Notes under the pieces: model-generated
Database searches by the model: none
Seen by the model: only the letters and a program-made list of their open reading frames with translations
What the model was told of the DNA's origin: nothing
Part shown: positions 1 to 4,409 of the stretch, one piece after another
Layout: every line of letters starts with the position of its first letter
Position numbering within the stretch: the first letter of the stretch is position 1
Source of the DNA: Escherichia coli
GTDB taxonomy: Bacteria; Pseudomonadota; Gammaproteobacteria; Enterobacterales; Enterobacteriaceae
Reading direction: 5' to 3' (one strand)
Assembly (NCBI RefSeq): GCF_003334785.1
Contig: NZ_QOWV01000047.1
Length of the DNA stretch: 4,409 nt
Made by a program: the position numbers and the translations under genes

Positions 1-60
1 TGGCCGGCAAACCGGGTACGCGATCTGTTGCCCTGGAAAGTTGATCTGAGCTCTCAGTAA
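1..60 (+). CDS. 3' terminal fragment of an upstream ORF (partial, 19 codons then TAA); identity not determinable from this fragment, possibly murI by E. coli synteny
   Basis: Frame 1 is open from position 1 and reads WPANRVRDLLPWKVDLSSQ before TAA at 58-60. Codon usage is plausible. Too short to identify the protein; murI is only suggested because it lies upstream of rrnB/murB in E. coli K-12. Confidence 0.3.
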   Translation, partial: WPANRVRDLLPWKVDLSSQ

Positions 61-92
61 ATATCAATACGGTTCTGACGAGTCGCTTACGA

Positions 93-190
93 CAAATCCG
101 CCGGGAGCGGATTTGAACGTTGCGAAGCAACGGCCCGGAGGGTGGCGGGCAGGACGCCCGCCATAAACTGCCAGGCATCAAATTAAGCAG
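93..190 (+). other. Distal rrnB terminator-region remnant with three stem-loops and a 5S rRNA 3'-end-like segment
   Basis: Matches my recollection of the sequence between rrnB T1 and T2 (GACAAATCCGCCGGGAGCGGATTTGAACGTTGCGAAGCAACGG...). Stem-loops at 94-114 (AAATCCGC/GCGGATTT), 118-132 (CGTTGC/GCAACG) and 144-162 (GGCGGGC/GCCCGCC). AACTGCCAGGCAT at 166-178 resembles the 3' end of 5S rRNA. Confidence 0.6.
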
Positions 191-225
191 AAGGCCATCC
201 TGACGGATGGCCTTTTTGCGTTTCT
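191..225 (+). terminator. rrnB T2-like rho-independent terminator
   Basis: GC-rich inverted repeat GGCCATCC (193-200) / GGATGGCC (205-212) with a 4-nt loop TGAC, followed by TTTTTGCGTTTCT (213-225). Sequence matches the rrnB T2 terminator as carried on common expression vectors. Confidence 0.8.
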
Positions 226-310
226 ACAAACTCTTCCTGTCGTCATATCTACAAGCCATCCCCCCACAGATACGGTAAACTAGCCTCGTTTTTGCATCAG
301 GAAAGCAGCT

Positions 311-3280: not shown

Positions 3281-3545
3281 AAGCATGTTTCTGGCGGTCA
3301 TAGCTCTATCGGCAAAGCGATATTTGCCATGGCGCGTCACAGTTCTGTTGAATGGGTTAATGGGCAGGAGGGTAACACCAGATGGGGAGGAATAATAAGA
3401 AAAAATCTCTGCCAGGAAGCTATCGTTGAAAAGCAATGTGACAGATATTCCATCTGATAAAAAGAATTATGGTTTAGCAGGAGCGCATTGTTGAGCACAA
3501 TGATGTTGAAAAAGTGTGCTAATCTGCCCTCCGTTCGGCTGTTTC

Positions 3546-3598
3546 TTCATCGTGTCGCATAAAATGTGACCAATAAAACAAATTATGCAATTTTTTAG
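3546..3598 (+). promoter_or_regulatory. A/T-rich upstream activating region (UP-element-like tract, possible Fis site) of the thrU-tufB operon promoter
   Basis: CAATAAAACAAATTATGCAATTTTTTAG (3571-3598) lies immediately upstream of the -35 hexamer. One candidate Fis-like 15-mer, GCATAAAATGTGACC (3557-3571), has G at position 1, C at position 15 and an A/T-rich centre. Fis activation of this operon is established in the literature; the exact site placement here is my inference. Confidence 0.4.
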
Positions 3599-3627
3599 TT
3601 GCATGAACTCGCATGTCTCCATAGAAT
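3599..3627 (+). promoter_or_regulatory. Sigma70 promoter of the thrU-tyrU-glyT-thrT-tufB operon
   Basis: -35 TTGCAT (3599-3604), 17-bp spacer, -10 TAGAAT (3622-3627), then the GC-rich discriminator GCGCGC (3628-3633), typical of stringently controlled stable-RNA promoters. Predicted transcription start about 3634-3636, a few nt before the mature thrU 5' end (3642). Confidence 0.75.
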
Positions 3628-3641
3628 GCGCGCTACTTGAT

Positions 3642-3717
<76 letters not shown>

Positions 3718-3725
3718 TCAAGTCC

Positions 3726-3810
<85 letters not shown>

Positions 3811-3926
3811 ATTTCGGCCACGCGATGGCGTAGCCCGAGACGATAAGTTCGCTTACCGGCTCGAATAAAGAGAGCTTCTCTCGATATTCAGTGCAGAATG
3901 AAAATCAGGTAGCCGAGTTCCAGGAT

Positions 3927-4001
<75 letters not shown>

Positions 4002-4007
4002 AGATGT

Positions 4008-4083
4008 GCTGATATAGCTCAGTTGGTAGAGCGCACCCTTGGTAAGGGTGAGGTCGGCAGTTCGAATCTGCCTATCAGCACCA
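4008..4083 (+). tRNA. thrT: tRNA-Thr (anticodon GGU)
   Basis: 76 nt. Acceptor stem GCTGATA/TATCAGC, anticodon stem CACCC/GGGTG with loop TTGGTAA (anticodon GGT), T-loop AGTTCGAATCT, encoded CCA (4081-4083). Confidence 0.95.
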
Positions 4084-4161
4084 CTTCTTTTCTCCTCCCT
4101 GTTTTTTCCTTCTGTTTATTGCATTCAACAAGTCGGGCATGTTGCCTGGTTGATGTGGTGA

Positions 4162-4409
<248 letters not shown>

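Follow-up and report, generated by a model that had tools for sequence, protein, structure and literature searches.

In the general model of polycistronic tRNA processing in E. coli, the CCA end of one tRNA is followed by a U-rich single-stranded start and then by a hairpin, and a short leader precedes the next tRNA. RNase P carries out the 5' maturation of tRNAs by cleaving at their 5' ends. For the other end, PMC2190699 places the RNase E cut 1–3 nt downstream of the CCA, and PMC5222698 gives the signature of this enzyme as a uridine two nt downstream of the cut, within single-stranded RNA. The tyrU-glyT spacer of the tRNA-tufB operon shares the layout of U-rich start, hairpin and short leader. 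The general model, however, needs only a few nucleotides, and it predicts neither a conserved 12-nt core at −8 to −19 nor hairpins that covary, both of which are found in this spacer.

Two described RNAs come closest to it. One is RtT RNA, of which elements are known from the E. coli tyrT locus. RtT RNA (RF00391) is non-coding and structured, lies directly 3' of tRNA-Tyr and is freed by processing of the tRNA precursor; its fold is one long imperfect helix, with a copy of the 3' end of tRNA-Tyr, GGGGAAGG...CCUUCCCCCACCACCA, as its closure. The tyrU-glyT spacer is likewise non-coding, structured and located directly 3' of a tRNA-Tyr, and would likewise be freed from a precursor, but it consists of three independent hairpins and carries no copy of the tRNA-Tyr 3' end. 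The other is 3'ETS-leuZ, cited in PMC5222698 and PMC5145812 as a 3' external spacer ending in the operon terminator, with the sRNAs RyhB and RybB as partners. Both it and the tyrU-glyT spacer are untranslated parts of a polycistronic tRNA transcript, excised (in our spacer, presumably) by RNase E and RNase P and conserved beyond apparent processing needs; the tyrU-glyT spacer differs in being internal, without a terminator and without a known partner. It resembles the known conserved structured spacers of tRNA and rRNA operons and is not a new kind of system. What is new with respect to Rfam 15, RefSeq annotation and the full-text literature is a covarying three-hairpin domain together with an order-wide invariant core at a fixed distance from glyT, a conserved RNA motif that has no Rfam family.

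The tyrU-glyT spacer and its surroundings

The window, that is, the whole 4,409-nt stretch of DNA analysed, corresponds to the murB-birA-coaA / thrU-tyrU-glyT-thrT-tufB locus of E. coli (the tRNA-tufB operon). The RefSeq record of E. coli BW25113 gives the order murB, birA, coaA (on the opposite strand), four tRNAs and tuf, and has no annotated feature in the tyrU-glyT gap. ARAGORN and Rfam place thrU at 3642–3717, thrT at 4008–4083 and, on the plus strand, tyrU (tRNA-Tyr GUA, 3726–3810; 53.4 bits with the Rfam tRNA model) and glyT (tRNA-Gly UCC, 3927–4001); tyrU and glyT, which form the upstream and downstream boundaries of the spacer, are also found in the BW25113 annotation. The spacers of the cluster measure 8 nt (thrU-tyrU), 116 nt (tyrU-glyT, 3811–3926) and 6 nt (glyT-thrT), so that the contrast between a long spacer and its short neighbours, from which the first-pass annotation had started, is borne out. 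The spacer itself is long known: the 116 bp are said to have stood in the sequence record since the early 1980s, through work attributed to An & Friesen (1980) and to Hudson, Rossi & Landy (1981). The accessible full-text literature yielded neither a study of it nor cleavage or RNA-abundance data. The operon supplies about a third of cellular EF-Tu, and thrU and glyT are single-copy and described as probably essential (PMC6134099, PMC5371648); PMC6134099 describes glyT as probably essential and as the sole tRNA predicted to read GGA.

The window's start is of another origin. Positions 1–87 carry the right-hand end, including the final codons, of tnpC, a transposase gene of the IS66 family with 94.7% identity to a copy found in strain ETEC1730. 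Near 87/88 this IS66 end meets the rrnB-distal region that precedes murB. In a set of 5426 complete E. coli genomes, no genome covers at least 80% of window 1–300, and the IS junction is absent from that collection; the DNA may thus stem from a Shigella or from an E. coli strain of an unusual kind. By megablast, window 88–300 is repeated at a median of 4 places per genome, many of them on plasmids; the ETEC1730 IS66 copy adjoins yhdZ, and sequence similar to window 88–300 follows that copy. The RtT model (RF00391) has a weak, sub-threshold match at 57–177 (18.6 bits, E 4.2), which falls downstream of rrfB in the region holding the rrnB distal terminator.

As stated in the first-pass annotation, the spacer holds no ORF beyond 4 codons: the longest closed one inside it is MKIR, with its ATG at 3898. 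A GTG frame from 3891 runs for 12 codons to the spacer end, meets a TAA inside glyT after 16 codons and is broken by indels in relatives, and all ORFs of at least 20 aa that touch the spacer begin within tRNA genes. A conserved small ORF was rejected, since indels disrupt the reading frame from clade to clade and a TAG lies within the core. The idea that the spacer is the remnant of a lost tRNA finds no support, since Rfam cmscan at E ≤ 10 and ARAGORN show only the four annotated tRNAs and none in 3811–3926, so that a degenerate tRNA was dismissed. Local alignment of the spacer with thrU, tyrU, glyT and thrT gave similarity not above that of shuffles (p 0.06–0.87), and the likeness of the core to GGUAG and GUUC, the D-loop and T-loop signatures, and by eye to the 3' end of thrU (about 13/19), was set aside as unproven. 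In Rfam the RtT model does not match the E. coli spacer even at E ≤ 10, and an assignment to RF00391 was discarded on this ground and for the different architecture of the spacer. A scan of 3300–4250 found no intrinsic terminator on the plus strand; its sole match, on the minus strand at 3882–3870, is weak.

Two small features had been picked out in the spacer beforehand. The GAGAG/CTCTC hairpin exists, at 3870–3874 / 3878–3882, which is 10 nt away from the 3860–3872 first given for it. The direct repeat has one copy where it was reported (AGCCGAGTT, 3911–3919) and another (AGCCCGAGA) at 3832–3840 instead of 3831–3839. The 5-bp hairpin and the 6+3-nt repeat with an indel are each, alone, not above chance, and a repeat search of the spacer (seed 6, minimum length 8) reported none. 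Both are minor features, which gain meaning only through comparison: GAGAG/CTCTC is the apex of a conserved hairpin (hairpin 3 below), and the repeat copy at 3911–3919 sits within the deeply conserved 12-nt core.

The spacer is present once in 5421 of the 5426 complete E. coli genomes, at an identity of at least 99% in 5416, and all 116 positions are identical in E. albertii (locus L009). Between E. albertii and the window, identity is 97.1% in murB, 94.9% in birA, 94.5% in coaA and 89.2% in the coaA-thrU intergenic region. At the rate of this intergenic region about 12 differences would be expected in the spacer and none is observed, which argues for constraint on the spacer throughout, its hairpins as well. 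Another explanation would be exchange or conversion of the entire tRNA-tufB block in one piece, given that the two species also share 99–100% identity in the flanking tRNAs and at the start of tufB.

A covarying three-hairpin domain

On the plus strand, the spacer begins directly after the tyrU CCA with the U-rich AUUUC (3811–3815), and N-UUU-C or a similar U-rich start is found in most spacers of the relatives. Hairpin 1 follows at 3816–3835 (GGCCACGC / GAUG / GCGUAGCC), with one C·A mismatch (3819·3832); it is predicted by the folds and corresponds to helix 2 of the covariance model described below. Hairpin 2 occupies 3836–3863 (CGAGACGAUAA ... UUACCGGCUCG), has two mismatches in E. coli, and is predicted by RNAalifold with compensatory changes and represented by helix 3 of the model. 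Hairpin 3 (3864–3889; AAUA-AA-GAGAG-CUU-CUCUC-GA-UAUU(C)) is present in the centroid fold and as helix 4 of the model. It was considered as a terminator and rejected, its U-run being present in the Enterobacter clade and absent in E. coli and Erwiniaceae. The purine-rich linker AGUGCAGAAUGAAAAUCA (3890–3907) is, by comparison with relatives, homologous to their conserved (U)ACAGAAAGAAC. In these relatives the purine-rich segment pairs with the U-rich 5' end (CUUUCUG/CAGAAAG), closing the three-hairpin domain; this closing helix is 77.6% paired across 32 distinct sequences and is weak in E. coli itself.

Most Enterobacteriaceae spacers fold on the plus strand far better than shuffled sequences (z −3 to −6), in a shape made of the closing helix, three hairpins and a small 3' hairpin. 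The plus strand of the E. coli spacer, taken alone, folds no better than its dinucleotide shuffles (z = −0.64). A covariance model (R1), made from seven Enterobacter-clade sequences and no E. coli sequence, was searched over 50 loci and the window. The model gave one match per source, always in the tyrU-glyT spacer (33 matches at E ≤ 1), and it matched the window at 3813–3926 with 32.6 bits (E about 2e-5). In the resulting alignment, standard pairs fill 87.5% of the cells, against 31–43% when the 3' partners are slid by 1–3 columns, and changes on both sides occur in 34 of the 38 pairs; a model-fitted alignment inflates such pairing figures somewhat, and the slid controls carry the same bias. 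Hairpin 1 is 93.6% paired, with both-sided changes in all six of its pairs; the corresponding figures are 87.2% for hairpin 2, over 11/11 covarying pairs, and 94.2% for hairpin 3, over 9/9. The E. coli spacer is, then, a member of a conserved structured RNA domain whose three hairpins are kept by compensatory change.

The strand that carries this structure can be read from the same alignment. The paired columns hold 84 G·U cells against 21 A·C cells, and this excess identifies the sense strand as the structured one. In E. coli the minus strand of the spacer folds better than the plus strand (z −3.4 against −0.6), which is accounted for by the single C·A mismatch of hairpin 1, a U·G on the other strand. 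An antisense RNA was on these grounds rejected, the minus-strand fold of E. coli being outweighed by the ratio of 84 to 21 across relatives.

A single scan of species-representative genomes with the first 42 nt of glyT gave 120 gammaproteobacterial loci, all of which were submitted to ARAGORN. The tRNA order Thr(UGU)-Tyr-Gly(UCC)-Thr(GGU) is kept among them, and within the cluster the Tyr-Gly spacer usually exceeds the others in length; the Thr-Tyr spacer equals or exceeds it in several loci of Vibrio, Pseudoalteromonas and Orbaceae. The Tyr-Gly spacer measures 25–55 nt in Vibrionales, Alteromonadales, Aeromonas, Pasteurellaceae and Orbaceae, and 87–483 nt in nearly all Enterobacterales, with Plesiomonas at 33 nt. 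Within this order it reaches 87–120 nt in Enterobacteriaceae, about 100 nt in Morganellaceae, and 124–483 nt in Hafniaceae (Edwardsiella), Yersiniaceae, Pectobacteriaceae and Erwiniaceae. Extra length is made up by RtT elements (RF00391, 52–126 bits) in Acerihabitans, which has two full copies, Yersinia artesiana, Dickeya oryzae, Serratia bockelmannii and Erwinia psidii (loci L019, L020, L086, L087 and L116). These widely varying lengths and RtT insertions mark the tyrU-glyT junction as a place where expansion has recurred. The spacers of Vibrio and Rheinheimera have a small hairpin, formed by the U-rich 5' end and an AGG-containing purine stretch (UUCC-UUA-GGAA; UCUUC-GUCAG-GAAGA), and we infer that the Enterobacterales hairpins and the RtT insertions are loop expansions of such an ancestral small hairpin.

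Of the suggestion that the spacer is the remnant of an insertion, an evolutionary sense is retained in part: the hairpin region looks as if an ancestral spacer of about 33 nt had expanded in this lineage, and RtT sits at the same place in related genera. The first-pass annotation had named an unconserved spacer of variable length among close relatives as an outcome that would refute its proposal, and here the picture is mixed: length and central sequence do vary among relatives, yet both structure and 3' block show conservation. The comparison thus illustrates how a tRNA spacer grows, by hairpin-loop expansion and RtT insertion, with an ancient leader module kept fixed.

Some observations on individual loci were made along with this survey. 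In Alishewanella longhuensis (L031), ARAGORN shows no tRNA-Tyr between tRNA-Thr(UGU) and tRNA-Gly(UCC), where a 41-nt spacer is left; either the gene has truly been lost or the assembly may be at fault. Two further Rfam families scored above threshold away from the tRNA cluster: Ysr206 in Yersinia artesiana (L020, 3448–3753), about 1.8 kb from it, and P26 in Erwinia psidii (L116, 8509–8585), several kb downstream of it.

The conserved core and the leader of glyT

Downstream of the linker, on the plus strand, lies a 12-nt core, GGUAGCCGAGUU (GGTAGCCGAGTT in the DNA), at 3908–3919. It is exact in 37 of 47 distinct Enterobacterales/Orbales spacers, which range from 33 to 483 nt, and has 11 of its 12 positions in 8 more; each locus has one copy, always at this position. 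The core is followed by the single-stranded 7-nt 5' leader of glyT, CCAGGAU (3920–3926), and the glyT 5' end given by ARAGORN and Rfam, taken with what is established on tRNA 5' maturation, puts the probable RNase P site at 3926/3927. The distance from the core end to glyT +1 is 7 nt in 36 of the 47 spacers. Whatever their length, Enterobacterales spacers end in ...(U)ACAGAAAGAAC-(C/U)(A/G)GG-UAGCCGAGUU-(C/U)CAGGAU followed by glyT, so that the last 30 bases are almost unchanged throughout the order. In the 33-nt spacer of Plesiomonas the core is kept and little else is present.

The core is tied to the tufB-operon junction and not to tRNA-Gly as such, given that it is kept in the Alishewanella locus where ARAGORN shows no tRNA-Tyr and is absent from second copies of tRNA-Gly(UCC) in Aeromonas. 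These second copies, which have the same tRNA-Gly(UCC) 5' half (loci L015, L036, L043, L046, L050, L057, L058, L095, L104 and L117), lie 10–105 nt after a tRNA-Gly(CCC) and have no leader motif; the core is therefore not a general need of tRNA-Gly(UCC) maturation. By inspection, related AGG...UAGCY...GAGU motifs occur in the spacers of Vibrio, Rheinheimera and Alteromonas. The Vibrio form, UAGCUC-NNN-GAGUUA, makes a neat hairpin with variable triloops, and the Enterobacterales are unable to form this UAGCUC/GAGUUA hairpin. Around the core itself a small hairpin is predicted, whose register shifts between families with almost no covariation. Since this hairpin shifts and hardly covaries, and since the Vibrio motif forms a different one, the core looks like a putative sequence-specific recognition site.

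Pairings of the core with nearby RNA were also considered. Pairing with the glyT D-loop (UAGCC with GGCUA) was rejected, as it comprises 5 bp only and is absent from the predicted folds; with regard to reciprocal covariation between core and glyT, all loci had been selected by an identical glyT 5' half. A tRNA-like closure of the spacer (UUCGGC with GCCGAG, and a UUCCA tail) that would mimic an RNase P substrate was likewise rejected, its 5' strand and CCA not being conserved; in place of the CCA the Enterobacter clade has UCA, and Morganellaceae have CAAU or CAC.

Proposed role and competing explanations

The reading we prefer, to which we give about an even chance, takes the anatomy, conservation, covariation and sense strand observed above as those of a structured internal transcribed spacer that acts in cis within the thrU-tyrU-glyT-thrT-tufB precursor and is made of three modules, with presumed nucleases and a putative recognition of the core. 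In module 1, RNase E would cut in the U-rich start, at CCA|A-UUUC, freeing the tyrU 3' end. This site is placed at 3811–3815 because the N-UUU-C start fits the published position and signature of the enzyme; the match is by inspection, and in relatives the same segment is the predicted 5' strand of the weak closing helix. Module 2, the three stem-loops (3816–3889), would be an Enterobacteriaceae-specific expansion of the small hairpin loop of an ancestral spacer of about 33 nt, and would keep a long untranslated spacer compact, so that it neither interferes with tRNA folding nor offers unstructured RNA. Module 3 (3890–3926), the ancient one, contains the purine-rich stretch, the core GGUAGCCGAGUU and the 7-nt leader, and its spacing from the glyT RNase P site is constant. 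It would arrange the 5' leader of glyT for cleavage by RNase P, perhaps through a small hairpin whose end is at −8, and/or give a second site for an endonuclease such as RNase E, at GAG|UU; RNase P would cut at 3926/3927 to make the glyT 5' end. With glyT described as probably essential and as the only predicted reader of GGA, strong selection on its leader would be explained. The protein of RNase P is known to contact about −4 to −8 of a leader, which leaves the sequence invariance at −8 to −19 unexplained.

The first-pass annotation had also suggested that the spacer carries RNase E or RNase III processing determinants. Processing determinants are plausible, on the indirect evidence of the fit to the RNase E motif, the constraint on the spacer and the fixed distance between core and glyT; nothing points to RNase III, there being no long duplex.

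It could also be argued that, beside the stable three-hairpin domain, the core is a docking site for a trans-acting factor, such as an sRNA, an RNA-binding protein of the CsrA, Hfq or ProQ type, or RNase P or RNase E acting in a substrate-specific mode; we regard this as a doubtful extension. If it held, maturation of the single-copy tRNA-Gly(UCC), of the downstream tRNA-Thr and of EF-Tu would be coupled to the physiological state, and a previously undescribed regulatory element would lie inside a very highly expressed enterobacterial operon. Should the core control the cutting of the precursor, the spacer would be a compact case in which tRNA maturation is controlled in a sequence- and substrate-specific way; as a mere passive, structured linker it would be ordinary.

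The features that set the spacer apart can be read in other ways. A core of 12 nt that is invariant across an order in sequence rather than in structure, next to a compact, covarying multi-hairpin domain, would also suit a trans-acting regulatory RNA, in which the excised spacer or its 3' module acted on an sRNA or on an RNA-binding protein as its sponge or decoy, in the way of 3'ETS-leuZ, with the core as recognition sequence and the hairpins giving stability. By inspection, a purine-rich (ARN-like) tract lies beside the core, GGA motifs resembling CAGGAUG or CAGGAAG occur in several lineages, and precedent for tRNA spacer fragments as sRNA sponges is mentioned in PMC5222698 and PMC5145812 (citing Lalaouna 2015). 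We nevertheless hold such a role to be rather unlikely: the scan showed neither a plus-strand terminator nor a poly-U 3' end, the usual need of Hfq-dependent RNAs, the fixed distance between the core and the glyT cleavage site points to a role in cis, no mention of such an RNA was found in the accessible literature, and no partner emerged, complementarity having been scanned within the operon itself. A further view would treat the hairpin region as functionless debris, left by an insertion, an expansion or the decay of a partial tRNA or RtT-type duplication, with only the short glyT-proximal block being of importance. The great variation in length (33–483 nt), the poor conservation of the central sequence between families, the insertion of RtT (RF00391) at this point in Acerihabitans, Yersinia, Dickeya, Serratia and Erwinia psidii, and the minimal spacer of Plesiomonas, which is essentially the block alone, would all agree with it. 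However, all three helices are maintained by compensatory changes, E. coli and E. albertii differ by 0 substitutions against about 11% in the neighbouring intergenic region, and neither a tRNA nor an RtT match is found in the E. coli spacer at E ≤ 10 in Rfam, so that debris is an unlikely account of the hairpins.

Conservation in sequence and not in structure is also what a DNA-level element would produce, whether an internal promoter or a protein-binding site for glyT-thrT-tufB. A luciferase reporter for the "tufB promoter" bears on this, as its 403-bp fragment starts with a forward primer that is exactly window 3893–3922 (Kacar et al. 2017, PMC5371648), a stretch that coincides with the conserved 3' block of the spacer; the fragment, however, also spans the whole thrT-tufB region, where activating mutations lie (PMC5371648). 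No sigma-70 consensus site (−35/−10 with 16–18 bp spacing) occurs in or near the spacer on either strand, and by inspection the resemblances to sigma-E, sigma-54 and sigma-28 sites fail on key bases or spacing: the minus-strand sigma-E-like GGAACTC...TCTG differs in spacing from family to family (14 to 17), the sigma-54-like GG-N10-CC has no GC, and the sigma-28-like GCCGA lacks a correctly spaced −35. An RfaH ops element was rejected too, as the hexamer GGTAGC is all that is shared with it and ops positions 3 and 10–12 are not kept. A role of the block at the level of DNA is, on this evidence, very unlikely. Still more improbable is a long-range pairing of the E. coli core region with the 5' leader of thrU (GCUACUUGAU with AUCAGGUAGC, 10 bp), in a stem that would enclose thrU, tyrU and the spacer, reminiscent of the processing stems of rRNA operons. 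This helix appears in both the MFE and the centroid structure of the whole precursor (RNAfold), and for E. coli/E. albertii, Siccibacter, Mangrovibacter and Edwardsiella the duplex energy is −16 kcal/mol, with p about 0.005 when compared with shuffled leaders. Most of the other lineages in which the core is kept nonetheless show this pairing weakly or not at all. The transcript, moreover, probably starts downstream of some of the 10 bp, as judged from an rrnB P1-like CAC(+1)UU context, and the thrU trailer is a better partner for the thrU leader, being local and covarying widely with it (ACUUGAU with AUCAAGU). Judged by this comparison, pairing with the thrU leader is not the reason for the conservation of the core.

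The local partner is a feature of its own. The thrU leader at 3635–3641, ACUUGAU, is perfectly complementary to AUCAAGU at 3717–3723, formed by A76 and the first six bases of the thrU-tyrU spacer. Complementarity is kept in most lineages, with many compensatory variants across families, such as ACUUAGA/UCUAAGU in Psychromonas and long matched pairs in Pasteurellaceae, which suggests a conserved leader-trailer extension of the acceptor stem of pre-tRNA-Thr. At the other end of the cluster, a sub-threshold match to YrlA (Y RNA-like; 31.3 bits against a gathering score of 69) covers glyT-thrT at 3947–4055 and most likely stems from the tRNA-like domain of the YrlA model.
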